From a virus (lineage: Duplodnaviria > Caudoviricetes), in the IMG/VR virus record IMGVR_UViG_3300046167_000798: DNA of 64,000 bases; one strand, given 5' to 3'. The position numbers and the translations under genes were made by a program. This document shows positions 1 to 62,033 of the stretch, piece by piece. Position 1 is the first letter of the stretch. Each line of letters begins with the position of its first letter. The notes below the pieces were generated by a model, which worked only from the letters and a program-made list of their open reading frames with translations, had not been told where the DNA came from and made no database searches.

Positions 1-1199
1 TGAATTTAAACTTCTATACGTTGAAAAAAACTTCATATACTTTTCTATCTTTCTCAAAGTATGAAATATCTAAATATCCTTTCAACAATCTAAAACTTAA
101 AAAATCAGGATATCTTAAGTAAGAAGTATCAAGTATTATTGGAGAATTCCAATATCTTTCAGTATTGAAAGTGTTTTAGTTTGTGTTGATAAATTTTTCT
201 AACTAATTTTTCATAGTTGAATGGAGAAAATATATTGAAAGTTGACATTACAACAATAGTAACCTTTGGTAACTTTTCTAGTATCTTATCTATATTATCA
301 AATAGTTGTTTAAAATCTAAACCTGTTCTGATAAACTCTGCTTGTTCTCCATATGTATCAACTGAAGTATATATAATAAATTCTTTTACTCTTTTTTCAT
401 TGATTATTACAGATGCCTTTTCAATCAATCTATCTATTAGTTTATCATCAACACAAAGATTACTATTAATAGAAAGTTTTAATTTTTTATTTGGTGTTTC
501 GGTTTCTATTATTTTATCTAACACTTTAAACGTATCTTTTGATAAAAGAGGTTCACCACCTGTAATTCTAAAAGTATCCATACTCTTATATAATTCAGGC
601 CACCATTTCCAAAATGCCTCCACATAAGGATTGTGGTCTTTTTGAAGAATCGGCACCATATCTTCTTTTTTTAGTTGTTCTAATGAATTAAATCCATCAC
701 CAGTAGAAAACTCTCCATGTTTTTTCATCTCCTCTACCCACTTAGAAGAATATGATGGGCCACAATACCCACATTTAAAATTACAAGTATTAGAAAATGA
801 TGCCTCTACATACTTAGGTAAATAATCAGCTTTCCAATCTATATTTTTAATTTCTTTAAAATACGGTTTTGACCAATCTTCCTCTGATTTAAAAACTCTA
901 TCAGAATATGAATTAGAATTATCTTCTACTTTCCAACAATAACCACATTCTTTTGGTCTTTTGTTTTCCAACATTTCTTTTCTAGCTTTTTTCTTTTGAG
1001 AACTATTATGAAGAGCTGTTGGATTTCTTTGTAATTCTCTTAATCCTATTTTATGAGGTGCAGGATGATGACAAGAATGAGTAGAACCATCATGTAAGTG
1101 CATTGTAACTTGTGTCCATTTTGCTAAACAAAATCCACAACCAACCGAATCTAAATTCTTTTTAGTTTCTTCAAAGTTATTTCCGATAACTTTACTCAT
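1..1199 (-). CDS. Radical SAM protein with N-terminal twitch/SPASM-like Cys cluster; runs off the window edge after apparent frameshifts near 165 and 55
   Basis: CNFKCGYC (CxxxCxxC), ITGGEPLL, N-terminal CLAKW..SCHH..CGYCW. The called ORF stops at 159, but removing one T gives HFNTERYWNSPIILDTSYLRYPDFL, continuing toward the edge. Confidence 0.85.
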
Positions 1200-1900
1200 T
1201 TTTTAATATTTTTTATTAACAGTTCAGACCACAATTTATGACCATCTGATAACCAATGGTTACCTTTACTTTGTGATACTTTATTTTCAAATAAATAATC
1301 AACCATATTTTCATCTATACAATTATTTGTATATTTTTTTATTGAATAACTATTATTAAATGTATCTGATATAAAATATGAAATATTTAAGTTTTCTAAA
1401 AGTAAAACTATATATTCAATTAATCTTTCATTCTTATAAACAAGTTCATAATCGTTTAAGAAAAAATCTCTACAAATTGAATGCCATTCTTTAAATTTTT
1501 CAATAGATGTACTTTTAAAATTTTTAGTAAAAAAATAATCTCCATGTGCATCATAACTTGTATAATTTATGTTGATAAGATTATCTTTAAAGGAATGTAG
1601 TTTCCTAGATTCACCAGATAAATTTATTAGTACAAATTTTGGATAATTATCAGTATTTTTTATATAATCAATGATATCATAAATAATCTTTTCATTTGAG
1701 TTTCCTTCACATCCAATATTTACATAATCTAAATTTAAATGTTTAGATATTAAATATGGAAATGTTTTATCATATCTATATTCATATATGGATTTTTCAA
1801 CTTTAGGATTATGTCCATCTTTATATAAATCTAATCCTATTTCTTCTTCAATTTCCCATCCTATTGAATGTGAACATCCTGATGATAACAAGTAACTCAT
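1196..1900 (-). CDS. SGNH-hydrolase-like protein (paralog 1)
   Basis: SGCSHS block I, IGCEGNSN block II, C-terminal GNHW..GH; similar to 48792..49769 and 56781..57542. Confidence 0.5.
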   Translation of the reverse strand: MSYLLSSGCSHSIGWEIEEEIGLDLYKDGHNPKVEKSIYEYRYDKTFPYLISKHLNLDYVNIGCEGNSNEKIIYDIIDYIKNTDNYPKFVLINLSGESRKLHSFKDNLININYTSYDAHGDYFFTKNFKSTSIEKFKEWHSICRDFFLNDYELVYKNERLIEYIVLLLENLNISYFISDTFNNSYSIKKYTNNCIDENMVDYLFENKVSQSKGNHWLSDGHKLWSELLIKNIKK

Positions 1901-3345
1901 AACTTAATATTTATGAATTTTGCCTTAGGTGTAATTTCTTCTATACTAACTAATTCATAATTAAGTGAGTTCATTCCATCAGATTTATAATCCCAAGTAC
2001 CACCTTGCATTTCCTTTACAAATCTTCTTTCATTTCTTGCAGTAGTTTCTCCTTTTGCCCAAACATCTTTACCATGTTCATTTTTTACCAATCCTTCATC
2101 TTTATGGTCTAAACAATACATTCTACCCTCTACTCTATGTGGTACAACTGTGTATGGTATTTTAATATCATCTTTATTAAATTCACAATTAAAATTTATC
2201 CCATCGTTATCATTGTCGGATTTATCCACCACTAAACCATCTTCAAAATCATAATGAAGGGATAACCCATCATCTGAATAATCTTCATGTAAAGTACTAA
2301 CCTCATCTGCAGTTAATGCTCTATTCCACATTTTTAAATCTGCAATATCTCCTTTAAACCATTTAGATGGGTCATTATCTGAAACTGATGTTGTTGTTCC
2401 TAAATAATAATCAGTATTACCATATCTTTTTAACATACCTTCAAATTCAAGAGGTGAATGTGTACCAGTTCCCCATCGTGCATCTGATTCTTTTCCATTC
2501 ATATACAAGTGAATATTATTTTCATCAACTACTAAAGTAATCCAACTCCATTGGTTTTCATATCGCTTCATCCATGAATATAAATGTTTTCGTGAATTAT
2601 TCCATAGTTGAGATGTATATGCTCTTGAATTATTATAACTCAATCCATAATCATATCCTGGTCTACGAAGTATTGGATATTCACAAAATCTCCTATCCAT
2701 ATCACCAACTAACCAAACAGGTACTTTTTCTTCTTGTTGGTGTGCTCTAACTAATACTGAAATTGTATGTGAACGAGATGTTAAATTTCTAAGTTTTCGT
2801 GTACAAGGAATTTGTACATATGAATTTTTACCATTAAATGAAATGTAGTTTTGTGTATTATTTTTAAAATCTAAATGGGTTTGATTGGCATATCCTTCCA
2901 AATTACATCTCCAAAATAAATCATCATCTTCCATACCCCAATCCCAATAATCATTACTGTATCCATTGGTTTTCTCAACTTGTTCTTTTGAAAATACAAT
3001 TGCTCCTCCAAAATATTCTTCATATTTTAGTTGGTAGTTCATTTGTGAAATATTAGTTGCAATATGTCTTGGGTTTTCTTTTGGAAAACTATAATCTGCC
3101 CCACCACCTTCTTCAGGTATCATATCGATATCATGCCAAACAACATAATCACATCCATCTTCAAATGCATACTTTGCCGCAATGTTTTTTGTTGCTCCTC
3201 TGTTAAATAGTTTATCATCAACTTGATGTCCAAAATAGATATGATAATCTATACCCTGTCCATCAAGATATTTACCAATCTTTGGTATAAACTCTTTTAA
3301 GTGAGCTTCTCTATTTCTATATGGAACACAAACTCCTAACTTCAT
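1897..3345 (-). CDS. GT7 (beta-1,4-galactosyltransferase-like) glycosyltransferase with inserted LamG domain (paralog 1)
   Basis: VPYRNRE, FNRG, WHDID (DxD), YFGG, NGYSNDYWDWGMEDDDL; then LamG motifs (FNGKNSYV, LYMNG, FKGDIADLKMWNRAL, HYDF); GT7-like C-terminus DGMNSLNY. Confidence 0.85.
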   Translation of the reverse strand: MKLGVCVPYRNREAHLKEFIPKIGKYLDGQGIDYHIYFGHQVDDKLFNRGATKNIAAKYAFEDGCDYVVWHDIDMIPEEGGGADYSFPKENPRHIATNISQMNYQLKYEEYFGGAIVFSKEQVEKTNGYSNDYWDWGMEDDDLFWRCNLEGYANQTHLDFKNNTQNYISFNGKNSYVQIPCTRKLRNLTSRSHTISVLVRAHQQEEKVPVWLVGDMDRRFCEYPILRRPGYDYGLSYNNSRAYTSQLWNNSRKHLYSWMKRYENQWSWITLVVDENNIHLYMNGKESDARWGTGTHSPLEFEGMLKRYGNTDYYLGTTTSVSDNDPSKWFKGDIADLKMWNRALTADEVSTLHEDYSDDGLSLHYDFEDGLVVDKSDNDNDGINFNCEFNKDDIKIPYTVVPHRVEGRMYCLDHKDEGLVKNEHGKDVWAKGETTARNERRFVKEMQGGTWDYKSDGMNSLNYELVSIEEITPKAKFINIKL

Positions 3346-3752
3346 AGTGTATCTGCAATTAGTTTTTTAAATTTGGTTGTACTCCAACCATGGTCTCTGT
3401 TTAAATAATGAATTGGTATATCTAATTCGAAACCTGTATATGTTTTACCTCGATAATCATCTCCTAAGAATCTGATATCTGGTGATAATCTTTTTAATAA
3501 ATCTACCAATTCTTTTTCATAAGTATAATATGCAATTCCATTTATAAATCTGATTGATGTTAGGATTTCTGTTCTTTCTTCTTTAGTAAGAATTGGTTTC
3601 AGTTTATGTGGTCTTTCTATTGATGGGTCTGTATGTAATAAAACTATAAATTGTTTACAATATGATTTACATTCTTTAAACATTTTTATATAACCTGGAT
3701 GTATTACATCAAAGTTTCCAGCAATTACTCCTACATCGTATAATGGCTTCAT
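3342..3752 (-). CDS. Cytidylyltransferase (TagD/CTP_transf_like family)
   Basis: AGNFDVIHPGY (HxGH-like, here HPGY), ER..IL, GDDY, RDHGWSTT. Confidence 0.85.
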   Translation of the reverse strand: MKPLYDVGVIAGNFDVIHPGYIKMFKECKSYCKQFIVLLHTDPSIERPHKLKPILTKEERTEILTSIRFINGIAYYTYEKELVDLLKRLSPDIRFLGDDYRGKTYTGFELDIPIHYLNRDHGWSTTKFKKLIADTL

Positions 3753-5200
3753 ATCTCTATCGATAGTTTAGTTACTAGTTCGTTTACATCTATACTAATT
3801 TCTTCATATCTTAAAGTATTTAATCCTTCTATTCTAAAATCATCTATATCATTTCTAACTTCATTATAATACTTTATTTGGTTTTTTCTAGTTTCTTTAT
3901 GTATCCATTTATTACCAGTAGAAGAGTTAGTTTTATGTTTCAATGATTTAAAACGAGAATTTCTACGATATGGCTTTGGTAGAAATGTTTTAAACGATTC
4001 ATTTGTTTTATATAAATATATATTGTTTAAATAAACATCATATTTTCCACCCAAATCAATTGAAGTAGTTGATGATGAGGTCTGTGGTAAAATCTGAGTA
4101 TATAAAAATTCACTTGATTTGAAATTACCAAAGTTTCTAAGTTTTGGTTTTGTTGGATTTTTTGATATTTCAATTATCTCATCATCAGTAAGAGCAATAT
4201 CGTATATCTCGATACCAGATATTAATCCATAAAAGAAATCTTTATTTGTTGGTTTACCATTTCCAATTCCAACATATATTTCATCAGATGATAATTGTAA
4301 TATTTCATTATTCATTTTTTCAATACCAACCAATTCACCATTCATGTAAAATTTTAATGTATCTGAGTTTTCATAAACCATTGTTAGATGTACCCATCTT
4401 TCACCAACAACTTCAGTTGCAACAGAATATGGTTTTTTATCTGAATCATAAGCCTGACAGAAGAATCTACGAAAGGAATTGTAAAATAATCCAATGTTGT
4501 ATCCTGGTATAGATACTATTGGAAATTCATCATAATCTTTATTTTCACTTAAACTTATATCACTTGGTTTTACCATTACTGATATTGTAAACTCATCTTC
4601 AAGTAAATGTAATTTTTTATTTGATGAAAATTTTATAAAAGAATCGTTTCCATCAAATTTAAAAGATTCAATTTCTCTAATATTTTCATCTCCCAATGAT
4701 TCACTATCTAATTCCAAATTAGATTCAATACATCTTATTAATAAATCATCATCTTCAAATCCCCACCCCCAATATTCATTAGAGAACCCATTGATGGTTT
4801 TAAAATCTTCTTTAGTAAACATAGTTACTCCACCAAAGTAATCAAAAAATGTTGTTTCGTAATCGTGTTCTTGTAAGTGTGTTGCTAAATGTAGAGGTTT
4901 ATCTGAATAAGAATAATCTACATCTTCAGGTAACATATCAACATCATGAAATACAAAATAATCGCACCCTTTATCTAAGGCATACTTATATCCTGCATTC
5001 AGAAGCTTACCTCTGTTAAAAGGTTTATCATCTGCCTGTTCAATGATGAAGATTTCGTAATCAATATCCTTAATATAATCTTTCATATGAGATAAGAACC
5101 TTTTCAGTTGAGTTTCTCTATCTCTATATGGAACTATTATACCAAGTTTATGATTTACTTTCTTCTCCTTGAGTTTCTGTATTCTCTTGGATTCTTTCAC
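3749..5200 (-). CDS. GT7 glycosyltransferase with inserted LamG domain (paralog 2)
   Basis: IIVPYRDRE, PFNRGKLLNAG, FHDVD, YFGGV, INGFSNEYWGWGFEDDDL; LamG (FDGNDSFI, WVHLTMV, FYMNG, FYGLISGIEIYDIAL); C-terminal EGLNTLRY. Confidence 0.87.
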   Translation of the reverse strand: MKESKRIQKLKEKKVNHKLGIIVPYRDRETQLKRFLSHMKDYIKDIDYEIFIIEQADDKPFNRGKLLNAGYKYALDKGCDYFVFHDVDMLPEDVDYSYSDKPLHLATHLQEHDYETTFFDYFGGVTMFTKEDFKTINGFSNEYWGWGFEDDDLLIRCIESNLELDSESLGDENIREIESFKFDGNDSFIKFSSNKKLHLLEDEFTISVMVKPSDISLSENKDYDEFPIVSIPGYNIGLFYNSFRRFFCQAYDSDKKPYSVATEVVGERWVHLTMVYENSDTLKFYMNGELVGIEKMNNEILQLSSDEIYVGIGNGKPTNKDFFYGLISGIEIYDIALTDDEIIEISKNPTKPKLRNFGNFKSSEFLYTQILPQTSSSTTSIDLGGKYDVYLNNIYLYKTNESFKTFLPKPYRRNSRFKSLKHKTNSSTGNKWIHKETRKNQIKYYNEVRNDIDDFRIEGLNTLRYEEISIDVNELVTKLSIEI

Positions 5201-5414
5201 TACCTCTTTCTGGTCTGTTTGTTGTTCCTACTGTTTTAGCTTTTGCAATCTGATAGAATTCGTTCAAATACCATTCCAAACGTTCCTGCCACATATCTGC
5301 ATCTAGTTCATAAACCCAATCGTTTATATCACCAATTGAACCAGCTATTGATTCAAGAGCTTTAACCCCTCTTTCTTCGAGTGATTTATTGTTCGTTGTC
5401 TCTTTCTTTGCCAT
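5148..5414 (-). CDS. Hypothetical small phage protein
   Basis: Open 88-aa ORF in the co-directional array; plausible helical protein. Confidence 0.6.
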   Translation of the reverse strand: MAKKETTNNKSLEERGVKALESIAGSIGDINDWVYELDADMWQERLEWYLNEFYQIAKAKTVGTTNRPERGSERIQENTETQGEESKS

Positions 5415-5943
5415 AATTGTAATTTAGTTTTTTGTTGTAAATTAATTCTTGTTTTAGTTTATCAAATATAAAACCTTCTAATCCTTCTTTATCAATAGGG
5501 AATGAAGTTTCTTCTATCCAATCTTTTAATCTTTCGGGTTCCCATTTTAAGTTTTCTAACTCATCATCTATTTTTTGAGGCTCCCATTGTTTAGTATCTA
5601 TTTCTGCATTTATTTCTTGTAATCTATATTCTATTTTTTCTTTTTCTACTTTTAAATCATCTAAACGAAATTTTATATCATCTCGTTTTACAGTTTTCAT
5701 TTTAATATCTTCATTGATATCATCAATAGTAGTTTGTTTATCATGCCATCTTGCAAAATATTTTCCTATATTTGCAGTTTTTGAGTTCCTATTTCTTAAG
5801 AATAGTGTTTCAACTATTAATATAATTTTTAAAAAAATTGATTTATCTTGTTGACCTGGTTCTGTTAAATCTTTTAACTGAGTATCGATATCTTCAAGAT
5901 GTCTTACAACCTTTTCGTTATGTAACAATTCTAATAAGTTCAT
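5386..5943 (-). CDS. Hypothetical coiled-coil protein
   Basis: 185-aa ORF with heptad-like charged pattern, overlapping its neighbours in operon fashion. Confidence 0.55.
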   Translation of the reverse strand: MNLLELLHNEKVVRHLEDIDTQLKDLTEPGQQDKSIFLKIILIVETLFLRNRNSKTANIGKYFARWHDKQTTIDDINEDIKMKTVKRDDIKFRLDDLKVEKEKIEYRLQEINAEIDTKQWEPQKIDDELENLKWEPERLKDWIEETSFPIDKEGLEGFIFDKLKQELIYNKKLNYNYGKERDNEQ

Positions 5944-7378
5944 AATTTTTTTTATTTTGTATATCTAATATACTGTATTTTAAAGTATTTAATCCTATTT
6001 GTTTATAATCTAAACTATTAGTAACAACATCGTGAAAAAAAATATCCGCATTTTCAGTTATATCAGGATTATAATCATAGTATTTTTTTATAATGTTACT
6101 ATCACCCTTATGTACCAATGATTTATATTCCGAATCTAATCGTATTGGTAAATATATTTCATTTGGAGTATATGTTATAGTATTATTTGATAACTTACCA
6201 TATATTTTTAAATGATTTTTAAATTTTCCAGAATCAAGTATAAGTGTATTTTTATATGTAGAATTATAATTTAAATTTATAGATGGAATAATTCCATATT
6301 TTGATTCAATATCATCTAATGATGAATTTCCTTTGTTATATAAAAGAGTAATGATATCTGAAGAAATACATAAATCAAAAGAAAGTATATTTGAAATAGA
6401 AAGAGATGTTTTATCATCTGATATTTTTATACAATGTTTTCTGTAATCATATATTTCAAAATCTTCTTTTAATTTTATTTCTTTGGTTTTGTTATTTATT
6501 GATAATCTTAAAGTTTTATCAGTAGCATCATATGAGTAAACACAATGATTCCATCTATTTCTTGAATACGATAATATAACCTCATTGTGATTATTATTAA
6601 TATCCCAAATCTGTGCAATTAGTTCGTTTCCATTACTAAGAAACAATCCACTATCACATCCTTCAAAAACAAATAAGTTCTTTTTCGGTTGTCTATTTGT
6701 ATCATCATTAAACCAAAAAGATATACTAAATGAATCTGTTAGCATTTTTTGTGATAAGCTGTTTAATGTTCCATAAATATAATCAGATTTTCCAAATTTA
6801 TTACAATGTATTTGTTGAATTCTTTTTTCTGCAGATGGAGATACTTTTTCTATCCTATATGGAAGAATATCTAATTCATCATAATTAGAGTAAACATTAT
6901 TTAAATCATAGAATTTTTCTAAATAAGCACCACTTCTTTGTAATCTATAAAGTAAATCTAAATCTTCAAAACCATAACCCCAATATTCATTTGAGTATCC
7001 ATTAGCATTTTCAAAATCTTCTCTACTGATAACGATAACTCCTCCAAAGTATTGTGGATAAGGTAATTCACCTCCATGTGCTTCTACATTACTTGCTAAA
7101 TGTGTTGGTGATTCAGGATAACCATAATCACACTCATCATTCATTGGCAACATATCTACATCATGAAAAGCAAAGTAAGTATATTCTTCTCCAACTTCTT
7201 TAGTAACTACATTACATAGTTTACCATAGTTAAAGGGTCTATTATCTGTTTGTTCTGCGATAAAAATAGTGTAATCGATTCCCTTATCTTTGAGGAATTC
7301 GTACATATGAGGAACAAATACATCTAAGTGTTCTTGTCTATCTCTATATGGAACTATTATTGCTAACTTATCTTTCAT
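5918..7378 (-). CDS. GT7 glycosyltransferase with inserted, divergent LamG domain (paralog 3)
   Basis: AIIVPYRDR, PFNYGKLCN, FHDVD, YFGGV, ANGYSNEYWGYGFEDLDL; LamG-like FSISFWF, WNHCVYSYD; C-terminal IGLNTLKY. Confidence 0.85.
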   Translation of the reverse strand: MKDKLAIIVPYRDRQEHLDVFVPHMYEFLKDKGIDYTIFIAEQTDNRPFNYGKLCNVVTKEVGEEYTYFAFHDVDMLPMNDECDYGYPESPTHLASNVEAHGGELPYPQYFGGVIVISREDFENANGYSNEYWGYGFEDLDLLYRLQRSGAYLEKFYDLNNVYSNYDELDILPYRIEKVSPSAEKRIQQIHCNKFGKSDYIYGTLNSLSQKMLTDSFSISFWFNDDTNRQPKKNLFVFEGCDSGLFLSNGNELIAQIWDINNNHNEVILSYSRNRWNHCVYSYDATDKTLRLSINNKTKEIKLKEDFEIYDYRKHCIKISDDKTSLSISNILSFDLCISSDIITLLYNKGNSSLDDIESKYGIIPSINLNYNSTYKNTLILDSGKFKNHLKIYGKLSNNTITYTPNEIYLPIRLDSEYKSLVHKGDSNIIKKYYDYNPDITENADIFFHDVVTNSLDYKQIGLNTLKYSILDIQNKKNYELIRIVT

Positions 7379-8221
7379 TTAGATTTTTACTATAACATTT
7401 GAAAGTTCATTCCACTTTGTATAATCAAAGTAAGAATTATCTTCCATTTTTTCAAACATAAATTCAGGATTATTTATATCGATTTTCCAATCGTTTACCT
7501 GAATTCCTCTGTACATTTTTTTGTATTCCTTCCAAAAGGAATAATCTTTTTTTGTTTCAGATACTTCTTTTAATCTTTCAAGAACTGTCGAATCCCACTT
7601 GAAGTGATGAACTTGGATAAATCCTTTTTCAAGTGGATATCTTTTAGGATGATTCCATCCTCGTTCTCTCCAAGTATCCGTATCACCAATCACAGCAAAG
7701 TGTTGACCAGGTGTTACATCCACAGAACCTTTCATTACACAACATTTGTTTGGCATCGCTCCACTCATAGGATATCTAAAAAATCCTGCAAGTGGAAACG
7801 ATTTCCAAATATTAGTTTCTTTTGTTACCAAAGGAAACTCTCCATCCTCTCCTATCCTATCGAGGAATCCTCCTGTGATGAACTCCCATCCATTCTTATC
7901 ACAATCTGAAATCATCTCTCTAATATCAGCTGGATAAACATGAAGTTCATCATCGTCCGAAACCACCCACCATTCATCGGGTTTAGTTTGCTTTACTTCA
8001 TTATATAATTGAGTAACTCGTTCCCAATTAAATTTTTCTTCTGTTACTATCTTGTGGGGTTTAATACCAAGATTAATTACATCTTCTAAAATACCATCTA
8101 AGGTATGTTGTCTGTAAACTACTACATAAATTTCATCTACAATATCTTTGTAGTGATTTATCATATGTGGTAGAAGTGTAGTGTTGTGTCCAACAACTGT
8201 AACCAAATTTACTTTTTGCAT
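7379..8221 (-). CDS. GT2-like (GT-A fold) glycosyltransferase
   Basis: LLPHMINHY, WWVVSDDDE (DxD), C-terminal VHHFKW; pattern of Glyco_tranf_2_4/GT92-like proteins. Confidence 0.65.
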   Translation of the reverse strand: MQKVNLVTVVGHNTTLLPHMINHYKDIVDEIYVVVYRQHTLDGILEDVINLGIKPHKIVTEEKFNWERVTQLYNEVKQTKPDEWWVVSDDDELHVYPADIREMISDCDKNGWEFITGGFLDRIGEDGEFPLVTKETNIWKSFPLAGFFRYPMSGAMPNKCCVMKGSVDVTPGQHFAVIGDTDTWRERGWNHPKRYPLEKGFIQVHHFKWDSTVLERLKEVSETKKDYSFWKEYKKMYRGIQVNDWKIDINNPEFMFEKMEDNSYFDYTKWNELSNVIVKI

Positions 8222-8988
8222 CTTTGTAGAATTGTTAGACCTGTTGATGCTGGTTTAGATTTAAATATACCATTATTAAAAAAGTTGAAAATTTCCCAAT
8301 CACTATCATCACTCAGTTCTTTTATTAATTTAGAAGGGCCGTTGGTTATTTCTTGATGGTCATCTTTTTTTATTTCATCTGTAACTATTAATTCTTTTTC
8401 AAATGATTCATCTGTATCGTGTATTGATATAATACCATTTGGTGAAAGTAGTTTAGAATATAAATCAAAATCTTGTTTTACATCTTTATAAGTATGTCCA
8501 GCATCTATATGTAAATAATCAATTTTAATATCTTCTTTAACGAAAAAGTTATAATATGCATTTTCAGTTGTTTCTAAAATTACTCTTGGAAAAAATGTTT
8601 TTCTAAAAAATGAATCCTCATTAATCCAATCAGTATTACCACCAACTCCATTAGAAGCATCTACTAAGTAAGTTGCTCCTATATCTCCCCAATTATAATC
8701 TCGGTTACCTTCAAATATTTGTGAATCATATAAATCAACTCTTGCCTGTGTCATTATTCTTGGAATAAATCCACCACCACTTCCTAAACATACACATACT
8801 TTTGCTCTCATGTAATGTATAATAGAATATATTAACAACCCATCACCCAAAGATAAATCAGTTGCACCATGTGTCCATCTATATGGAACTTTTTTTAGTT
8901 CAATATATTCCTTTTCATTAGTGTCGTATTCTTTAGATTGATTGTGTGTAAAAAAATCTTTTATAAAGTCAAGATTTAGAAGTGTCAT
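8209..8988 (-). CDS. Class I SAM-dependent methyltransferase (Methyltransf_24-like)
   Basis: VCLGSGGGF motif I, IDYLHIDAGHTY, LSPNGIISIHDT. Confidence 0.8.
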   Translation of the reverse strand: MTLLNLDFIKDFFTHNQSKEYDTNEKEYIELKKVPYRWTHGATDLSLGDGLLIYSIIHYMRAKVCVCLGSGGGFIPRIMTQARVDLYDSQIFEGNRDYNWGDIGATYLVDASNGVGGNTDWINEDSFFRKTFFPRVILETTENAYYNFFVKEDIKIDYLHIDAGHTYKDVKQDFDLYSKLLSPNGIISIHDTDESFEKELIVTDEIKKDDHQEITNGPSKLIKELSDDSDWEIFNFFNNGIFKSKPASTGLTILQRCKK

Positions 8989-10448: not shown

Positions 10449-10922
10449 TTATGGTTTAGTTGGCCAGGTTATATTAAATGGGTCTGGTTGATTTGTTATA
10501 TCTCTTAGTGATTGTCTATATGTACTCCATTCCTCACTAAGTGTTGGTGTATCCTGTAATGCCATATAATCGGTTTCTGAAAGAAGTTTATCTCTTTTTT
10601 CTCTTAAGTAATCCCACCTACTTTCATTAACCTGTGCAATTTCTTCTGCAGTAAGGTCTACAACAGAGTATGTTCTAACATATACAGAACCACTTTGTGT
10701 TGGTGTTACTTCTATAACATCTTGATATTCACTACAAGATGGATATGAATTTGAATCAACTACACAATAAATACTTGAGGATATTAAGCTTTCAGTAGTT
10801 TCATCATCAAACGAGTATAAATTATCAAATGTACTAGGATTATTCGCAATATATTCACCTATATCGTAAGGATAAATTACATCTGAGCCTGATACTTTTA
10901 AAAAAATATTATTTATTTCCAT
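10449..10922 (-). CDS. Tail fibre assembly chaperone
   Basis: C-terminal RDKLLSETDY...W.TYRQSLRDI.NQ..P..I.WP.KP; directly downstream of the tail fibre. Confidence 0.85.
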   Translation of the reverse strand: MEINNIFLKVSGSDVIYPYDIGEYIANNPSTFDNLYSFDDETTESLISSSIYCVVDSNSYPSCSEYQDVIEVTPTQSGSVYVRTYSVVDLTAEEIAQVNESRWDYLREKRDKLLSETDYMALQDTPTLSEEWSTYRQSLRDITNQPDPFNITWPTKP

Positions 10923-10944
10923 TATTACTTTTTATATTATATTA

Positions 10945-13900
10945 TTACCATGAGTTTCTACCACCATCATCATGTCCTACTATAATCCAACCACCTTCAC
11001 AATTTTTGGTAGTATTCCCATTCCTAAGAGTTTGTTTATTAAAGATAAATTGAACACAATGTCCACCACTTAAGGTGTACCATCCGTTATTATCTCCTTC
11101 TCCTGATAACCCTTCTATATATGCATTTCTACCATGGTTAGTGTTGAATATATAGACTACCGTACCATCAGCTATATCTTCAACATCATAAATATCAGTA
11201 CTGTATTGATAATTTCGTGCTGCTTTTGGAACAGAACTATCATTACTTCCGTTAGTAAATTGTCTATGTGGAAGTGCATAGTACTGACTTGAAGCTGAAG
11301 AACCAGGAGATAATGTAAAGAATGCACCTTTCATTGGATTTATATATGATGGACTAGTTGAACTCCCACCACTTGATGGAATACTATATCTCCTCATTTC
11401 AGGTCCACTGTAAAGTTGAGGTCTTGCCAGTCCATAAAATGCACTACTTCCTCCATAATCTTGGCCTAAGATAGTACGGCCATAGAAATTAGCTCTACCA
11501 GTTGATGTAATTGTTGAATCATCTTTATCATCTTGATTAAGAGAAACTGTTCCTCCCTCTACTTGTAAAAGTGTAGAGGTATAACTACCAGGTGATACTC
11601 TATTAATTTTTACATACTGGTCTGAGTTTGTTACGGCCTGGAATCCCCCACCTGATAATTCTACAAAGTTTGATGGTTGTGCAAGTGTAAATGATTCATC
11701 AAACCCACTAACTGCTTCTGCACGTTGTGTGGAATTTTGAACATATGTAGTGGTGGAGTTAGTACTAGTTCCATCTAATAAGTATTTTGTTCCTGTTCTT
11801 GCCAGAACTTTTGATTTATGTATAAATCTATAATCTCCTGTACTTGTAATATTAATAGTAGAAGTAATTGGTGTGGCAGAAGCATAATGATAACTGTTAG
11901 CAGATGTAGTATATCCTGAAACTGTTTGCCAGTCATAATTATTTGAATTTCCGGTTGCCGTATAATAAGTACCTATTGTTGTTGCACCTCGTGAGTACGC
12001 ATATCCTAATTGAATCTCAGAAACCGTATCCCATGTACCTGAATTATCTTTCTGAAGACATAAATAAACGTAATGGTAAGTATATGCCGCAGATGCATAA
12101 GATTGATAATTGTAAGTAGGATATGGTGGAACTAGGTTTCCAAATGGACTTCCTGTTGTTACTGAAACACTCGGTGGGCTGGTATTTAATGTCCAAGTTG
12201 GCATAGTTGTCCCACCACTATATAAATCAGATAATTGATACTCACCTGTTGTGGAAATTGTTATATCAGTACTATCTGGTGTACTAAAAGCTGTTGCTTC
12301 CCCTTGTGCACCTGTTCCACTATTTGAAGATACATACGATGTAGCGGGTATTGAAGAACCAGGTTGATTACTATTGTAACTAGCAATGTAAATATTTCCT
12401 GCACCAGCTGAAGTTAAAGTATCATCTGCATTAATTTGTGCTTTAAGTTCATTACTTGAATTAAATAATTGAATCTTCTTAGATGTTGGATTTAAAATAA
12501 TTCTACTATCAACATCTCGAAGTTTACCTTCATTTTCAACAGTATCAACAACCCAGCTACCAAGAATTCCACTTTGTATATTAAATGAACCTGAAATGTT
12601 TGCATCTTGTGCTGACATGTTTCCATCTGAATCTACATGGAATTTAGGATTTCCTTCTGTTGGTACACTTAATGTACCACCAATTACAGAACCACCTGAT
12701 AGAGTTCCTGTAAATGTACCACTACCATTAACAATCAATTCATCTGCAGAAGCATCCCAAGTAAGTGCACCTCCTGTTCCTCCAAGGAAAAAATCACCAT
12801 TATTGGCCATGTAGGTTGTAAAATTACTACCATCATGATATCCTACAAATTGTGAAGTTAAATTTAATCCTGCAGCGGCTGTATTTGTTGCCAAAGCAAA
12901 TGCATTTGCACCACTTCCACCAAATGCATAAGATGTTGGATTTTCCAAACCACCTGTTGTTGCATTAATTGCATTTACACCACTTTGTGCATTACTAACC
13001 GCGGTATTTAATGAACCGGTTGCAGTATTTAATGAACTTACACTACTATTTAATGAACCTGTTGCACTGTTAAGAGAATTTAATTGATTTGCAGTTTGAC
13101 CTCCTGTTATATTAATAGTACCTGTTACAGTTAATTTTGCTTCAGAAGCATCCCAAGTAAGTGCTCCAGATGTTCCACCAAGGTAAAAATCACCACCACT
13201 ATCCATGTAAGTTGTGAAATCACTACCATCATGGTATCCCATATATTGTGAAGTTAAATTTAATCCTGCGGTGGCTGTATTTGTTGCTAGTGTAAATCCA
13301 TTCCCACCAAATGCATAAGAACTTGGATTTTCTAAACCACCTGTTGTTGCATTAATTGAATCTACACCACCTTGTGCATTAGTTACGGCGGTATTTAATG
13401 AACCGGTTGCAGTATTTAGTTCTCCTAAACTAGCTTCAAGTCCTTGGCCAGAGGTTAATGTTATTGCTCCTTTTATATCTAATGTCGAACCATTCCATTT
13501 TAAATGATTTGAACCACCTTTTAAAGATAATCTGTAACTTGGAGTTCCACTATTATCATGGTTACCTATAAAAATACCATCTACATCATATCCTTGGTTT
13601 CCTGCAGTACTACTTTGTCCTATTGAAATGTATGGATTATTAGTACCACCTGCTAAAGTAATATTAGCTGCAGAAATACCTCCACTATTGTTACTACCAA
13701 CATTTAATGTATTTTGAACAAATGAATCTTCAAACAATCCTATCTTTGCTGCCACAAAGAAATCTTGTGTTCCTAAACTTTCCCATTTATTTGCACTTGA
13801 TTGATGAGGTGCACCATTAGCAACATTACCAGTAGCAGAAGTATGACTTGATTTAACTGCATAATATTCATCATATGGTGCGTTACCACTTGATGACCAA

Positions 13901-16900
13901 AGTACTACATCTCTTCTTCCACTTGCTCCAGTCGAAAACTGATATGCTCGGCTATCTTCCCAAACTCCTGTAAATACTACACCTGGTCCATTTGTTCCAA
14001 CAACGGCGGTTGTGACTGGGTGATTAAATTGTTTACTACCAGCATTACCTGAACCATCCTTATAATCAATAGTATATGTTGTTGTAAGTCCACCTGGATT
14101 ACTTGCTGAAGAAGGTTGTGATGGTGTTAAAACTCCTGCTGAAGCTTCTGAACCATTTGTTATACTTGAGTTGATTTTAAATTGTGAATTTGATAATGTT
14201 GCACTACTAAGTACCGCGGTTAATGCCGAACCAGTTTCTTGAGCAGTTATGGTAATATTAGATACACTATCAAAAGTATCTCCATTATTTACATCTCTTA
14301 TAAGATTTTGAGTAAATAAACTTGGAGTTATATCTACTGCATTTGCACCATCTTGTCCAACAGTACCATCTTCACCTTGAATTGATTTTGTTAATGTTTG
14401 AGTAGTTGTTAAACTAAAAGCCGTTCCATCTAATCTTTGACCCGATATTGTATATGTTATAGTTGCCTGATTTGCAGTGAAAGCACTATGGTTACCAATT
14501 ACACAAGTTGTTGTATCTAGTCCTTGACTTGCAGTTCCTTCAGTTAATCCACTTTCATTAGAAATAGAAACACCATATTTTCCTGCAGATACAGTACCAG
14601 TTGTAAATGTTAAAGCAGTTACTCCTTCAAACACTTTAATGTTTGTACCACTTCCTGCAAAAGAAGTTGGTGTTCCACTAGGATTACAAGTAAAAGAATG
14701 ATTTGAATTATCATTAGATACTTGAATACTATCTAAACCTTCTTTTGATTTAGTTAAAGTTTGTACACTTGTTAGTGAAATTGCATCACCATTTAATCTT
14801 TTACCAGTTATTGTATATGTTATAGCTACTGTATCTGTACCATCAACCATTGCAGAATGAACACCAACCACTGCATCATTTGTTGAATCAGTTATAGTAC
14901 CAACTGTAATTGTTGAAGTGGGTGATTGTGAAGTTGCAACTGTCCAATGACCAGCAGTTGAACCATCATTATCATAATCTAATTGAGTTGCTCCTTCAAA
15001 TAAAGAAAGTGTAGTTCCACTATTTGCATAATCTAAAACTTCTCCACTTGAAGATGCTGGTAATGTATGTGATGGATTTGAACTAATAAGTGTTAATCCA
15101 TCTGTTCCTTCTTTTACTCTTACAATTCTTACTTCATCAGTAAAATCACCATCTTCACTAGCAGTTACAGAAAGTACAACTGAGGTATTTGAACCAAAGT
15201 TTGTTGCTGATAATGCTCTTGAATCACCTGTACCAGTTAGGGTTACCGAAGGGTCTGTATTGAATGTAGAGGAACCTGATATATTTTGTCTTATTGCAGT
15301 AAATGAAATTGATGATGGGGTTACTGTTCCATCTAATGCTTCAACAAATACTTGTGCATCATTTGTTAATCTTACACTTCGTGCATTTGTTCCATCTCTA
15401 CCATCCGATACTATAAAGAATGTTTCAGATACAGATGTTGTTTTACTTGTATTTGGGTCAACGAAAGTAGCATTAACAGTTAAGTCTTTTGTAGTTGTTG
15501 CAGTTGAAGAACCTAATGTAATACTTCCACCATCCCCATCGTTTGCAGTTAAGGTTATTTCTGAATCTCCTGTTGCGGTACTAATCTTCATTTTATCAAC
15601 AGTACCATTAAAACTTGGAGTAATCAATGCACTCTTTTGATACTCAGTTCCATTTGAATCAAAGAAAGAAGCAGTTAATGGTAAAGTTGCTGGTGTAAAT
15701 GAATTAGTAAGTCCTCTATTTGTATGTAATGAATTTGCTAAGAATGTTCCTCCACCTAAACCATCAGTTACATCTAATAAAGCAATAGTATCTAATAATG
15801 TACCATCATCTTCTTTAAGTGAAATTAATTTTGAACCACTTATTGCAGTATTAGCAAATACAGGATTATAAGTTACACCATTTCCACCATCACTAATACC
15901 GGTCATACTTGTAGTTAGTAAAGTACTTCCACTATAAAGTTGTGCATCTCCTTGAGCAGAACCACTTACATCAAATGAACCTGTACCATCCAATCTTACT
16001 ACTTGTAGTTGTAACGTACCTTGGTTATTTTTTATTTGTGTTCCATTTATTGGTTTAATGATAAATCGTGGTCTTGTATCAAGGCCTGGTTTTGTAAATA
16101 TTAAACTTTCTTGGTCACTATCTAGTTCATTATTTAAATTAACATTATTATCAGATACTCCTACTCTAAAAGTAAATGGAGTACTTGGAATTGTAGTTGG
16201 TGCAGTAAATACTCTACTCGTATGTTGTGAACCAGTTGAATCGTTAAAAGTAGTATCATCGACAAAACTACTATCTCCTCCTGTAAATTTGTAGTATGGG
16301 TCATTTATAGTAGATGAACCTGAAGCAATTAATGTTACTGTTGATGGAGTTGGGTTTGTTCCATCTGCATTATATTGTATAGTATTAGGACTTATAAGTA
16401 ATGTAACACTACGAGCATTTGTTCCATCAACACCAACTTTAGATACACTTACATCAAATCTTACTAATTTATTTTGTACTAATGTTCCTTCGGAATTTAC
16501 ATAATCAATTGATGCACTACCAATTGTTCCATTATATCCATCGTGAGTACCATATGTTGGTGTAATTATTTCATTAGAATTTGAACCTGAACTTACTGAG
16601 TTGATTTCAAATTTATAAGCTTCACTCAATCCTCCACTTAAACCACTTTGATAACTATATTCAGTCCCCACCTTCTTGTACCACAACTTCTATTGTTTGT
16701 GGAACTTCATATCCACTTGAACCAGAGTTTATTGTTTGAGAAGTTGGTGATGTTTTTGTTAAAACATTTGGTACTGCCTTTTTTGATTTTGTATAAGATA
16801 CAACCTTTTCAAATGATTGTGATGTTGTATTATCACCTGCAAGATATTCAATATTTAATGTTAACGAACCACTATCTTTACTAGTTTGAAATGCAGATAT

Positions 16901-23852: not shown

Positions 23853-24307
23853 TCTTTTCTAAAAAACTTTCCTAATAGGTTATCATTTAGAGATAATTTA
23901 TCAGCAAGTACATTATGAGAAAACTGTTCCTGTAACTCATAATATGTTAATGCCTTCTTAGTTTTACAAAATCTAAGTATCCTTAGTTCTAATCTATCAT
24001 TTATTTCTCCTCTCGGTTCTTGTTCCATAGATAAAGTGTTCGAATGAAACCATAATTGTACTGAGGCATTTGATGAACGATAATCTTGCCACTTAGATTC
24101 TTTTATCACCTTTCTTTTTCTTTTGTAACCTTTTAATGGTGGTAAAGTTCTATGTGAATATAAGGATTTTTTTCCTATATAATATTGACCAGTTTGGCCA
24201 TTTGTAATCTTGTATATAAATCCGATAGTCCCCTCGGGCATATCTGATATTTCTGTTATTGGTCTTCCGTTAAAATTCCATCCCATAGTTAAAAATCTTG
24301 AAATCAT
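23834..24307 (-). CDS. GIY-YIG nuclease, T4 EndoII (DenA)-like; true start probably MGWNF at 24286
   Basis: GFIYKITN..TGQYYIGKK, ES.WQDY.SS, C.TKK.LTY.E. Confidence 0.7.
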   Translation of the reverse strand: MISRFLTMGWNFNGRPITEISDMPEGTIGFIYKITNGQTGQYYIGKKSLYSHRTLPPLKGYKRKRKVIKESKWQDYRSSNASVQLWFHSNTLSMEQEPRGEINDRLELRILRFCKTKKALTYYELQEQFSHNVLADKLSLNDNLLGKFFRKDLEITE

Positions 24308-24839
24308 TATAATACCTCTCTCTCACCCACTCCTTCATCCACTCTTCAGAATAATAATATTTGTAATATTTTTCCTGGTTTAAGTTTGGATGATTGTTGT
24401 GTATTGGATTATTATTTAGATGTGGTAACTTTTCTTTATAATTAAGTTTTTTAAATAACACAGCGGTATCTTCTAATAAGTTTTCATATCTTCCTATAAA
24501 AGATACTTCTTTAGTATTTGTTTTTCCTTCGTTAATATAATAACTTTGAGGTATAATCCATGTATCGTTTTGATTTATTGTTTCAGTAAACTCACGAAAA
24601 TTACTTGAATAAATACCTTTTCTAACTCCATGTTGCCATGCAGACATCAATCGTGTAAAAGGATTCCTTACTATTGTAAATATAAAATATTCATTATCTG
24701 GAACTGCACGTATAGAATCATGTGAAGTATATATTTCCACAGATTCCTTAGTTAGTAATACTTTGTTAATTGATGTTCCTCCGGTTTTAGGGACATGAAT
24801 AAATGCCCATTTTTCAGAGTGATTTAGAAGTAAACTCAA
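24270..24839 (-). CDS. Sulfotransferase (Sulfotransfer_2 family)
   Basis: FIHVPKTGGTSI (5'-PSB), FTIVRNPFTRLMSAW (3'-PB), FIGRYENL, Y.NDFKIFNY. Confidence 0.85.
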   Translation of the reverse strand: MSLLLNHSEKWAFIHVPKTGGTSINKVLLTKESVEIYTSHDSIRAVPDNEYFIFTIVRNPFTRLMSAWQHGVRKGIYSSNFREFTETINQNDTWIIPQSYYINEGKTNTKEVSFIGRYENLLEDTAVLFKKLNYKEKLPHLNNNPIHNNHPNLNQEKYYKYYYSEEWMKEWVRERYYNDFKIFNYGMEF

Positions 24840-43575: not shown

Positions 43576-45285
43576 TTAACGTATCTTTTTACGAACTACA
43601 TAAGAACCAAGTATCAACACATCCATCTCACAATTTAAAAATGTTTTAATTGCATCTTCTGGTGTGAGAACCATTGTTTGGTCTTTTAAATTAAATGAAG
43701 TATTAATAACAATTGGAAATCCAATTAGTTTTTCTAGTTCACCGAGTATTTGATAAACATATCTAGCTCTTGTATTTGTTAGAGTCTGAACTCTTGATGA
43801 TTTATCTACATGAGTTATAGATGGTAATTTATTTATAAATCTATCAACTACCTTTACTACTTGATTCATATATGGTATATCAGAATCATATTCAAAATAA
43901 GTGGTTAATGCTTCTCTTTTACATATAGGAGCAAATGGTCTGAATCCTTCTCTCTTTTTAATTACTTTATTTAATCGAGATTTCATTTGAGGGTCACATG
44001 GATTTGCGAATATACATCTACTTCCTAATGCTCGTGCACCAAACTCCATTCTTCCTTGAAACCATCCTATAATATTATTTTCAGATATTAATTCAGCAGT
44101 ATAAGGTATTAATACATCACTTGGTTTCCATTCATAGTAAACATCTAAGTGATAATCATTAAGTGCCTTTAACATATCTTGTTTACTATAATCAGGACCT
44201 AAATATGGATTAGTATTATCATGTCTATCAATATCAATACCTTTGTAAAAACTTTCAAGAGCAACTCCAATCGAAGAACCAGCATCTGATGGTGCTGGTG
44301 GTATCCAAATATTTTGAAACTTTGTTTTTTCTTTTATCTTACCATTTGCAGTTCCATTATAAGCACATCCACCACTCAAACATAAGTTCGGTGTTTCTGT
44401 TATTCTATGTAATCTGTTTAATAATTTAAAGAAATATTTTTCATATTGAAATTGTACCGATGCAGCTAAATCTTTATAATCTTGTGTTAGTTCTTCTTCT
44501 GGTAATCTATTTGATATACCTAAATGTTCTGATAGTTTTGCGTTAAACATATGGTCATCAGACCAATCATATTCAAAATATTCCATATTTAATTCATATC
44601 CACCATCTTTAGTAGAATAAATTATATCTTCAAATTTTAAATTATATTTTTCAGGATTACCATATGGAGCTAATCCCATAACTTTATACTCACCCTCGTT
44701 TGGTTTGAATCCTAAGAAAGCAGTAAATGAAGAATAAAACATTCCCAATGAATGTGGGAAATCTATACTTTGTAATTCTTTTATTTTATTCTTATCACCA
44801 TAAGATAAAGAAGTTGTTTTCCACTCACCAACACCATCTACTGATAATATAGCTGATGTTTTAAATGGAGAAGTATAGTAGGTATATGATAGGTGAGAAT
44901 CGTGATGATTACCAAAAATAACCTTAGTATTTTTACCTCTATACTTATCTATATTTTTATTTAATAAATTATAAGATTCAGTATTTCTGTTTATTATTTT
45001 TTTTCTATTGAAATATTTCCAAATACCACCTCTTTTTGTAGATTCTGTAATTCTATCTAATTTTGTTATTGGGTTTTCGTAAAAACATATCTCAGATATA
45101 TCTTCTTTGGAAATACTAAATTTATCAAAAAACCAATTTAAGGTATTATGTGGAAATGAAGAATCGTGTTTTATACCTGTGAATCTTTCTTCCTCACAAG
45201 CAGCGATAACTTTACCATCTTTAATCAAAGAGGCAGCTGAATCGTGATATCCACAACTTATTCCTATAACATATTTTACTTTCAT
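43576..45285 (-). CDS. Carbamoyltransferase (NodU/CmcH/TobZ family)
   Basis: GISCGYHDSAA, EEERF..IKH, HHDSH, DGVGE, HSLG..Y, EYKVMGLAPYG, LSGGCAYN, DAGSSIG, GARALGSR, KREGFRPFAP, NTSFN. Confidence 0.95.
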   Translation of the reverse strand: MKVKYVIGISCGYHDSAASLIKDGKVIAACEEERFTGIKHDSSFPHNTLNWFFDKFSISKEDISEICFYENPITKLDRITESTKRGGIWKYFNRKKIINRNTESYNLLNKNIDKYRGKNTKVIFGNHHDSHLSYTYYTSPFKTSAILSVDGVGEWKTTSLSYGDKNKIKELQSIDFPHSLGMFYSSFTAFLGFKPNEGEYKVMGLAPYGNPEKYNLKFEDIIYSTKDGGYELNMEYFEYDWSDDHMFNAKLSEHLGISNRLPEEELTQDYKDLAASVQFQYEKYFFKLLNRLHRITETPNLCLSGGCAYNGTANGKIKEKTKFQNIWIPPAPSDAGSSIGVALESFYKGIDIDRHDNTNPYLGPDYSKQDMLKALNDYHLDVYYEWKPSDVLIPYTAELISENNIIGWFQGRMEFGARALGSRCIFANPCDPQMKSRLNKVIKKREGFRPFAPICKREALTTYFEYDSDIPYMNQVVKVVDRFINKLPSITHVDKSSRVQTLTNTRARYVYQILGELEKLIGFPIVINTSFNLKDQTMVLTPEDAIKTFLNCEMDVLILGSYVVRKKIR

Positions 45286-47491: not shown

Positions 47492-48112
47492 TTATAAGAT
47501 TTCAGCACCTACTGATAACAGAGGTTCTGCTTTCTTGTATTTCATAAATTGAGTAGAACCATCCGATAATTTTACCATCACTCTTTCATTTCTACCGTAT
47601 TTTTTTTCAGATTTAATTGTAGTAGTGTATCTTCTTGATGAATCTGTTATAAGGATTCCATTAAGATGGTCTATCTCATGTTGAGCACATACACACTCTA
47701 GTAATCCTTCATCTCCAAAAAATTCCTCAGAATCTTTCCATTCTTTTCCTTCTTCAATATCAGGTGAAAATATAACTGTTCCTAAATTATCACACTCTAC
47801 TGTAAATGATTTATGTCTTAAAGTTTTAACTGGTTTTTTCATTGTCTTATCTAACGATAAACATTGTTCTACATAAACAACTGTTTCTTTAGATACTTCT
47901 ACAACTTTTGGATTAACTAATAGTAATGGTTCTTTTACGTTTATTAAACAAACTCTATCTGTTAAACCTATTTGATTTGCAGATAATCCCAACCCACCAT
48001 ATCTAGTTAATTCGGTTGTTAATTTTTTTGAAATATTATCTATTTGCTCTTGTGTCATCGGTGTATATTCTAAAACCGATTTTAATTTACTTGGGTCTTT
48101 AATTAGTTTCAT
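47492..48112 (-). CDS. def: Peptide deformylase with C-terminal SecA-tail-like extension
   Basis: GLGLSANQIG, EQCLS, QHEIDHLNG; tail KYGRNERVMV..MKYKKAEPLL. Confidence 0.9.
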   Translation of the reverse strand: MKLIKDPSKLKSVLEYTPMTQEQIDNISKKLTTELTRYGGLGLSANQIGLTDRVCLINVKEPLLLVNPKVVEVSKETVVYVEQCLSLDKTMKKPVKTLRHKSFTVECDNLGTVIFSPDIEEGKEWKDSEEFFGDEGLLECVCAQHEIDHLNGILITDSSRRYTTTIKSEKKYGRNERVMVKLSDGSTQFMKYKKAEPLLSVGAEIL

Positions 48113-50890: not shown

Positions 50891-51799
50891 TTAATTACTT
50901 AATGGTGCTTTAATTGTTGGGTGATATTTGTATCCTTCTATTTCATAATCCCATTCTCCATTTAAAATATCTACGTTAGATAATTTTATTGTTGGTAATG
51001 TAAAAGAACTTCTTAATCTTTGTTCTTCTGCTTGTTCAATATGATTTTTATATAAATGAGTATCACCTAAGTTCCCAATCAGTTCACCTGGTTCTAAATT
51101 TGTTTCTTCACATAATAAGAGTAGTAGAGTACCATAGGATGCAATATTAAATGGTAACCCTAAGAATGTATCTACTGAACGTTGATTCCACATTAGAGAT
51201 AACTTACCATCGTTTACATAACATTGAAATCCATAATGACAAGGAGGAAGAACTACTAGAGGTAGTTCACTTACGTTCCAAGCTGATACCATCAATCTTC
51301 TACTATCAGGATTGTTCTTTATATTATCAATAAGTTCTTTGATTTGGTCTTTACCACCTTTGTTTATCTCACCTGCAACTGGTGACCATTCTCTCCATTG
51401 TTTACCATAGATTGGTCCAAGTTTACCCCAACTAGATGCAAATGATTCATCTTCTTTAATATGTTGTATAAATTCTTTTTGGGTAAACATATCATCATGA
51501 TATTCTGATGGATGTGCTTTACAATATGCTTTATACGCATCTCCATCCCAAATATGACAATTGTTATCAACTAAGTATTTGATATTAGTATCTCCTTTTA
51601 AGAACCACTTCAATTCAGTCATCATAGTTTTAACTGCCATCTTCTTTGTGGTTAGTAAAGGAAACCCTTCACTCATATCATGTCTAATTTGTTTACCAAA
51701 TACAGATATAGTACCTGTACCGGTTCTATCTCCCTTTTCTTTTCCTTCTAATAAGATATCTTGTAATATCCCTTGGTATCTTAAATCTAAACTATTCAT
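50891..51799 (-). CDS. thyA: Thymidylate synthase
   Basis: DRTGTGT, FPLLTTKK, LGPIYGKQWR, SRRLMVSAWN, LPPCH, QRSVD.FLGLPFNIASY, HLYKNH. Confidence 0.97.
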   Translation of the reverse strand: MNSLDLRYQGILQDILLEGKEKGDRTGTGTISVFGKQIRHDMSEGFPLLTTKKMAVKTMMTELKWFLKGDTNIKYLVDNNCHIWDGDAYKAYCKAHPSEYHDDMFTQKEFIQHIKEDESFASSWGKLGPIYGKQWREWSPVAGEINKGGKDQIKELIDNIKNNPDSRRLMVSAWNVSELPLVVLPPCHYGFQCYVNDGKLSLMWNQRSVDTFLGLPFNIASYGTLLLLLCEETNLEPGELIGNLGDTHLYKNHIEQAEEQRLRSSFTLPTIKLSNVDILNGEWDYEIEGYKYHPTIKAPLSN

Positions 51800-61956: not shown

Positions 61957-62033
61957 TGGTGAACCAGACAGGATTCGAACCTGTGACCGTCTGCTTAGAA
62001 GGCAGATGCTCTATCCAACTGAGCTACTGGTCC
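61957..62033 (-). tRNA. trnR: tRNA-Arg (anticodon TCT) with encoded CCA
   Basis: GGACCAG/CTGGTTC acceptor stem, TAGCTCAGTTGGATAGAGCA D-arm, TCTGC-CTTCTAA-GCAGA anticodon arm, GGTTCGAATCC T-arm. Confidence 0.97.

Follow-up and report, generated by a model that had tools for sequence, protein, structure and literature searches.

Tandem GT7 glycosyltransferases of uncultured phages carry a LamG domain inside the catalytic fold and may use it for acceptor recognition

We analysed a stretch of 64,000 nucleotides of the virus record IMGVR_UViG_3300046167_000798 (Duplodnaviria; Caudoviricetes), in the following called the window, and found that it encodes three paralogous proteins of glycosyltransferase family 7 (GT7), in each of which a laminin G-like (LamG) domain interrupts the catalytic fold. 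The three open reading frames (ORFs) lie on the minus strand and encode paralogue A (P0001, 482 amino acids (aa), 1897..3345), paralogue B (P0002, 483 aa with a GTG start, 3749..5200) and paralogue C (P0003, 486 aa, 5918..7378). An N-terminal GT7 part (~2875–3345, ~4697–5200 and ~6902–7378 in A, B and C, respectively) is followed by the LamG insert (~2143–2874, ~3968–4696 and ~6146–6901) and by a C-terminal GT7 part (~1900–2142, ~3752–3967 and ~5921–6145). The motif series VPYRxR, FNxG, HD(V/I)D, YFGG and NG(F/Y)SNxYWxxGxEDxD, from which an earlier sequence-only reading of this DNA had recognised GT7, is found in all three proteins, and Pfam profiles bear out both the GT7 and the LamG assignment with scores above the gathering cut-offs throughout: 59–83 bits for Glyco_transf_7N (cut-off 27), 65–75 bits for Glyco_transf_7C (cut-off 23) and 55.6, 68.0 and 29.8 bits for Laminin_G_3 in P0001, P0002 and P0003 (cut-off 27.6), with P0003 barely passing. 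The Glyco_transf_7C match covers only profile positions 1 to 61–65 of 78, because the LamG insert splits this region. We consider it moderately probable that these proteins are enzymes of the beta-1,4-galactosyltransferase (beta4GalT) type, split by LamG and acting sequentially on a LamG-held acceptor, with a virion protein ranked first as the target.

The internal position of LamG, already proposed from the letters of the window, is confirmed by alignment with insert-less GT7s of ~220 aa, which places a block of ~240 aa between residues ~168 and ~411 of P0002. The additional residues lie between '...LELDS' and 'PYRRNSRFKSLKH', whereas in the short forms 'ISIDRRDGKFLSLNH' links the same two strands directly. 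Hidden Markov models (HMMs) of the N-terminal GT7 part, the insert and the C-terminal GT7 part match P0001, P0002 and P0003 in that order, with E-values of 2e-64, 1e-65 and 1e-21 for P0001. The GT-A fold of the beta4GalT type is complete including its C-terminal strands, in agreement with the earlier proposal that the chain returns to GT7 sequence at its C-terminus. AlphaFold2 models reached a predicted local distance difference test score (pLDDT) of 94.4 and a predicted template-modelling score (pTM) of 0.89 for P0002 (from an 86-sequence alignment), and 89.9 and 0.79, respectively, for P0003. With its Pfam scores above threshold and its jelly-roll fold the insert belongs to the LamG/concanavalin A-like domains, and the whole ~230–250 aa form a single large jelly-roll rather than a LamG of 160 aa plus linker. 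The domain does not start immediately after the EDxD motif; it begins ~15–20 residues further on, behind a helix and a short strand. Searches of PHROGs with the GT7-LamG proteins gave weak matches to entries of unknown function only, and NCBIfam returned nothing for P0001 and, for P0002, nothing beyond a weak match to TafC within LamG.

The site of insertion is close to a functionally important element of the animal enzymes. On closing, the flexible loop of beta4GalT1 covers the donor and creates the acceptor site; we take this loop to be residues 345–365, with the LamG insertion just before it. By alignment, the insert takes the place of the hairpin tip at approximately residues 333–341 of bovine beta4GalT1, and the insertion point lies ~10 residues ahead of Met344 and His347 of metal site I, which is composed of Asp254, His347 and Met344 (PMC7565966). 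Regarding the start of P0002, GTG is the sole start codon upstream of the PYRDR strand, and the gene overlaps the upstream 88-aa ORF by 53 nt. Paralogue B of the close relatives L001–L004 (10001–11338) is called from an internal Met, giving 445 aa; since this start would delete the first beta-strand and the frame is open upstream, it is probably miscalled in these records.

In textbooks, GT7 is the Golgi family of animals that makes lactosamine, lactose and the proteoglycan linker, and the proteins had been described as metazoan-like members of a mainly animal family. This description could not be upheld, as bacteria and giant viruses widely encode insert-less GT7s, which are 41–46% identical to P0002, compared to 39% for animal beta4GalT1. 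These uncharacterised proteins of ~220 aa (from Parachlamydiaceae, Steroidobacter and Mimiviridae) share the minimal core, the motifs and the C-terminal segment, and a short turn of the 'DRRDG' type joins the two strands between which the phage proteins hold LamG. The 39% identity to the animal enzymes beta4GalT1/7 (CAZy GT7; PDB 1TVY, 1NF5, 4IRQ and 3LW6) extends over the N-terminal ~150 residues in a Foldseek alignment. In phmmer, beta4GalT1 matches P0002 with an E-value of 4e-34 over residues 16–163, and a second, weak stretch pairs the last 48 residues with the C-terminus of the enzyme. Animal and phage proteins share DxD, the catalytic Asp within WGxEDD and the equivalents of Tyr289 and His347. 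However, the phage proteins have neither membrane anchor nor stem, their catalytic domain lacks the ~45 residues with which the animal one begins, they hold ~240 aa of LamG in place of the hairpin tip before the flexible loop, and they are predicted to be cytoplasmic and are encoded in tandem.

Conservation of the catalytic residues argues for active enzymes. P0001, P0002 and P0003 all retain the metal-binding DxD, the catalytic aspartate within WGxEDD and, past the hairpin, the His that binds the metal (D86/D88, E149–D150 and H422 in P0002 numbering), and over 71 LamG-bearing sequences D86 and D150 are invariant (71/71 each), with D88 kept in 69, E149 in 68, W146 in 66 and H422 in 65. Alongside the two DxD aspartates, the positions equivalent to Trp314, Glu317, Asp318 and His347 of the animal enzyme are thereby close to invariant. 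Since these residues are kept, the three proteins are likely real transferases. The position equivalent to Tyr289 is occupied by Tyr in 60 of the 71 sequences and in all three window proteins. In the animal enzymes, as judged from beta4GalT1 mutants, Tyr at this position goes along with Gal and not GalNAc donors, so that a donor of the Gal type is hinted at, though no more than that. P0003 and its clade deviate at three positions, with Tyr replacing both Arg228 and Trp314 and Leu replacing Asp319, so that the motif reads EDLD. Arg228Lys is known to alter the donor choice of beta4GalT1; PDB entry 1YRO is, by its title, this mutant. The substitutions, with the Arg228 position among them, suggest that paralogue C probably uses a different donor or acceptor, while A and B would keep the residues of a Gal-type donor site. 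We also considered paralogue C as a pseudo-enzyme and judged this unlikely, since it retains DxD, Glu-Asp and His and since its whole clade shares the substitutions.

The tree of the GT7 core, calculated with the insert columns removed and including 15 insert-less sequences from a quick search, contains a single branch (SH-like approximate likelihood-ratio test support 96) which parts the LamG-bearing GT7s from the insert-less ones on its other side. This is consistent with one insertion event and a single origin of the LamG-bearing lineage. P0001, P0002 and P0003 sit in three different deep clades (A, B and C), with nearest representatives 65%, 94% and 76% identical, respectively. As each has closer orthologues elsewhere, ancient paralogy has to be assumed in place of the local, recent triplication suggested before, and the three are old, non-redundant paralogues. 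Their identity to each other amounts to 41–51% in the N-terminal core and to 16–21% in LamG. Family means of 47.9% for the core and 21.6% for LamG point in the same direction, leaving LamG as the fastest-evolving part.

Gene order is strongly conserved around these enzymes. We compared 80 IMG/VR loci picked by likeness to paralogue B, for which the informative part is that A and C are constantly present and keep their positions. Tandem GT7-LamG genes occur as two copies in 52 and as three copies in 26 of these loci, and the order of the clades is fixed, reading B-A in 51 and C-B-A, as in the window, in 25. The close relatives L001–L004 as well as more distant phages (L084/85, L087 and L012) display the same recurring string, in which a giant fibre or tail-spike gene is followed by a Methyltransf_24 gene, a ~280-aa protein, a small ORF, two to three GT7-LamG genes, a radical S-adenosylmethionine (SAM) enzyme of the twitch type and a ~245-aa protein. 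The giant ORF adjoins the cassette in the loci of the relatives, too. LamG itself is not confined to GT7: a free-standing, insert-like ORF of about 240–245 aa, matching the insert HMM over its full length, lies downstream in 55 of the 80 loci, and such a free counterpart was also detected by HMM in L001–L004. Fusions to the radical SAM enzyme were found in L125 (6554–8719, 722 aa, one LamG) and L148 (12815–15634, 940 aa, two LamG), while in most other loci LamG forms a separate gene of ~245 aa beside the radical SAM gene. Judging from these arrangements, the LamG module is common to the GT7 and the radical SAM enzymes of the putative pathway.

We propose a mechanism in which P0001, P0002 and P0003 would each act as a soluble, metal-dependent (DxD), inverting GT7 glycosyltransferase of the beta4GalT type, split by a LamG/pentraxin-like beta-sandwich of ~240 residues, and would each move one beta-linked hexose from a uridine diphosphate (UDP)-sugar. 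The fast-evolving LamG would grip the growing acceptor and, because it holds on to it, the enzymes could work one after another; the same module, free or fused, would serve the radical SAM step. Acceptor recognition by LamG and stepwise building of a glycan, both suggested in the sequence-only reading, are made more plausible by the fixed C-B-A order, by the faster evolution of LamG compared to the core and by its occurrence as a free or radical SAM-fused domain. Lectin domains which steer glycosyltransferases are described for the GT7 enzyme B4GALNT3 with its PA14 domain (PMC13018970), for GalNAc-Ts (PMC4432651) and for MGAT4A (PMC9296478). B4GALNT3/4 (GT7 with PA14), the GalNAc-transferases (GT27 with a ricin-type lectin) and MGAT4A all combine GT-A and an acceptor-steering, carbohydrate-binding beta-domain in one chain and, by analogy, the phage enzymes most likely work like these lectin-assisted glycosyltransferases. 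In contrast to the phage LamG, which is internal and found free and radical SAM-fused as well, the lectin domains of these enzymes are fused at the end and adopt other folds (PA14, ricin B).

LamG could alternatively be a structural or regulatory module, i.e. a specifier resembling alpha-lactalbumin, an oligomer-forming domain or a dock gathering the enzymes of the pathway. In beta4GalT1 it is the closed flexible loop that binds alpha-lactalbumin (PMC7565966), and an insertion just before this loop would fit such a role. The high pTM values of the two models suggest a fixed domain interface, and the free and radical SAM-fused copies are equally able to be docking units. However, being the fastest-evolving part is more typical of a ligand-recognising surface than of a conserved interface, and the nearest folds to the LamG part are ligand-binding LamG or pentraxin domains together with the putative carbohydrate-binding protein 4dqa. 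We therefore regard a purely structural or regulatory role as quite unlikely.

Regarding the target of the LamG-guided enzymes, we favour a cytoplasmic protein acceptor, either the adjacent fibre or another virion protein, ahead of a host envelope glycan, because all cassette proteins are soluble and because the cassette holds a fixed place behind fibre and chaperone genes. In the window these genes span 10449..16686 on the minus strand and consist of a tail-fibre assembly chaperone (10449–10922) and a fibre protein of 1913 aa (10945–16686), which together lie directly upstream of the cassette with respect to transcription. With 26.5% Ser+Thr, this fibre is perhaps a candidate acceptor. No hydrophobic segment of 19 residues is found in the coding-strand cassette ORFs of the window, L001, L084 and L087, and the cassette is therefore without an initiating phosphoglycosyltransferase, a flippase or a polymerase.

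This latter observation bears directly on the alternative that the same enzymes remodel a glycan of the host envelope (lipopolysaccharide O-chain or capsule), e.g. in order to block superinfection or re-adsorption of virions, with LamG gripping lipid-linked or nascent polysaccharide. For such a pathway one would look for membrane steps, but neither a membrane protein nor an initiating transferase, flippase or polymerase is present in the cassette of the window or in the ~16 kb around it in three relatives. The conserved position right behind the fibre and chaperone genes and the fact that the phages concerned are large myoviruses likewise speak against it. In its favour, insert-less GT7s are common in bacterial genomes. 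Several further points have to be weighed against a virion protein as the target and against the reading built on it. Glycosyltransferases in the tail-fibre and host-recognition region of pelagimyophages were read as modifying the host O-antigen (PMC7029224), and the adjacency to the fibre may merely mark a variable 'host-recognition' region. Host enzymes could supply the membrane steps missing from the cassette. In L020, a contig of 195 kb from a metagenome-assembled genome (MAG) of Spirochaetaceae, where the phage cassette is absent, a single GT7-LamG gene lies among genes for GT4, GT2 and FkbM methyltransferase, and this may be a cellular polysaccharide locus using the GT7-LamG architecture. 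The presence of B in the 80 loci is built in, since they were picked by likeness to it, and the root of the tree and the inferred single origin depend on the 15 insert-less sequences and a quick search. Overall, we consider remodelling of the host envelope the less likely reading, but one that has to be taken seriously.

Phage glycosyltransferases are often DNA-modifying, as is generally known and cited in PMC12619734, and the enzymes could thus glycosylate modified bases of the phage DNA to evade restriction. The cassette, however, is situated in the structural region behind the fibre genes and not among genes of nucleotide metabolism, and its methyltransferase, nucleotidyltransferase and radical SAM enzymes fit glycan building. 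In addition, the only gene of the thymidylate synthase family within the 64-kb window (ThyA, 50891–51799, minus strand) passes the ThyA equivalog cut-off with 354 versus 325 bits and is therefore not a hydroxymethylase. Modification of DNA is consequently highly improbable.

Returning to glycosylation of a virion protein, a broader hypothesis can be put forward tentatively. A widespread group of large aquatic phages might run a cytoplasmic glycosylation line that serves the phage's own tail fibre or a different virion protein. In this line, a portable LamG, present within the GT7s, with the radical SAM enzyme and as a free protein, would provide a common handle to the same growing glycoprotein. 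If true, this way of targeting a substrate would be without a described counterpart in any glycosylation pathway.

GT7-LamG proteins are abundant. A search of 90% clusters gave 2443 matches, the best 120 of which all showed the three-domain arrangement and came from marine and other metagenomes, and a search of 50% representatives gave 403 clusters at an E-value of 1e-30 or better. An exhaustive search of representatives additionally returned many GT7 proteins of ~220 aa without the middle block. At least 593 stretches in IMG/VR encode relatives, on contigs of up to 335 kb, so that the window phage can no longer be regarded as unusual in carrying GT7-LamG. Tens of clusters with at least 50 members in the ESM Atlas show the architecture and are labelled 100% viral, Uroviricota. 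GT7s lacking the insert are common in the genomes of prokaryotes (Steroidobacter, Parachlamydiaceae, betaproteobacteria and others), and LamG-bearing ones were found on MAG contigs, mostly together with the phage cassette. The LamG-bearing branch appears to be phage-specific. The cassette resides in uncultured myophages from aquatic habitats, many of which are of jumbo size. The source phage is itself a myovirus, whose baseplate wedge protein is only ~40% identical to those of Microcystis phage Mel-JY01 and Flavobacterium phage immuto.

The AlphaFold DB holds one cluster representative of the same full-length architecture, A0A2E0BNI5 (474 aa, 'Galactosyltransferase C-terminal domain-containing protein'), which aligns with a TM-score of 0.68–0.69 over residues 18–483 at only 23% identity; it is an uncharacterised, automatically named prediction. 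Its existence means that the design is already contained in public databases. Among the top 50 matches to viral structures in BFVD none was full-length, and only separate LamG proteins and insert-less GT7s of giant viruses were retrieved. A tblastn search with P0002 against 50,697 GenBank phage records gave no match at 1e-5, although records close to the window may escape this search. Literature searches for GT7 or galactosyltransferases with LamG in phages yielded no relevant paper, and those on glycosylation of virions and tail fibres nothing specific. The earlier statement that no characterised phage enzyme of this architecture is known agrees with these results, in which we found no characterised enzyme, paper or cultured phage. 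While the parts themselves are known, we found no paper describing the placement of LamG inside GT7, the ordered tandem arrays in phages or the LamG shared with radical SAM enzymes, and to this extent these features are new.

This large GT7 branch, with an internal lectin-like domain just before the acceptor-site loop, is not only abundant but strictly ordered and tied to a radical SAM cassette. If LamG steers the acceptor, the system would constitute a compact natural case of lectin-guided sequential glycosylation and a way into marine phage glycans, hence into host recognition, particle stability or escape from defence, and might become a source of engineerable beta4-transferases with built-in targeting. 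Should the cassette only decorate host polysaccharide, it would still be a useful marker of a large group of uncultured phages.

The remaining genes of the cassette belong to the first 10 kb of the window, which form one minus-strand gene string of 26–30% G+C. Between paralogues B and A lies a small nucleotidyltransferase related to RfaE domain II and glycerol-3-phosphate cytidylyltransferase (RfaE-II/TagD-like, 3342..3752), which occupies the same position in L001–L004 and is likely to activate either a sugar phosphate or a polyol phosphate. Paralogues C and B are separated by two small genes without known function (5148..5943), which encode 185 aa (coiled-coil-like) and 88 aa and have the same sizes and place in close relatives. 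Upstream of paralogue C follow a protein of 280 aa (7379..8221), whose weak GT2-like match stays under the Pfam threshold and whose cassette position is taken by a gene of ~280 aa in distant phages too, and the class I methyltransferase of the Methyltransf_24 type (8209..8988), a conserved cassette member. On the other side, the next conserved member is the radical SAM enzyme with an N-terminal twitch domain (159..1199, 346 aa; NF033640, 285 bits). Its orthologue in L001, 84% identical, has 472 aa, and the DNA alignment continues to position 1, so that the short ORF would reflect a premature stop, a frameshift or a sequencing error. Between this gene and paralogue A, a 234-aa ORF without family match (1196–1900, minus strand) fills a stretch of ~685 nt which is missing from the collinear, 82–83% identical L001 and is therefore a strain-specific insertion. 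We tried this ORF as a candidate free LamG and rejected it, since BLASTP gave E-values of 0.7–1.8 and no HMM matched. A Sulfotransfer_2 gene is located away from the cassette (24270–24839, minus strand), and a Sulfotransfer_4 gene lies within the cassette of a distant relative (L084, 7674–8270); the glycan may accordingly be sulfated in some phages.

The window further carries auxiliary genes, like ThyA all on the minus strand, for a NodU/CmcH-like carbamoyltransferase (43576–45285), a peptide deformylase (47492–48112), the UV endonuclease UvdE (55767–56714) and PhoH (63107–63772), and a single tRNA-Arg(TCT) at 61957–62033 (minus strand) within this auxiliary region (43576–63772). A helicase is encoded in two overlapping ORFs on the same strand (52636–54019; ResIII/DEAD, 261 aa, and Helicase_C, 220 aa), which may represent a frameshift or a truly split gene.

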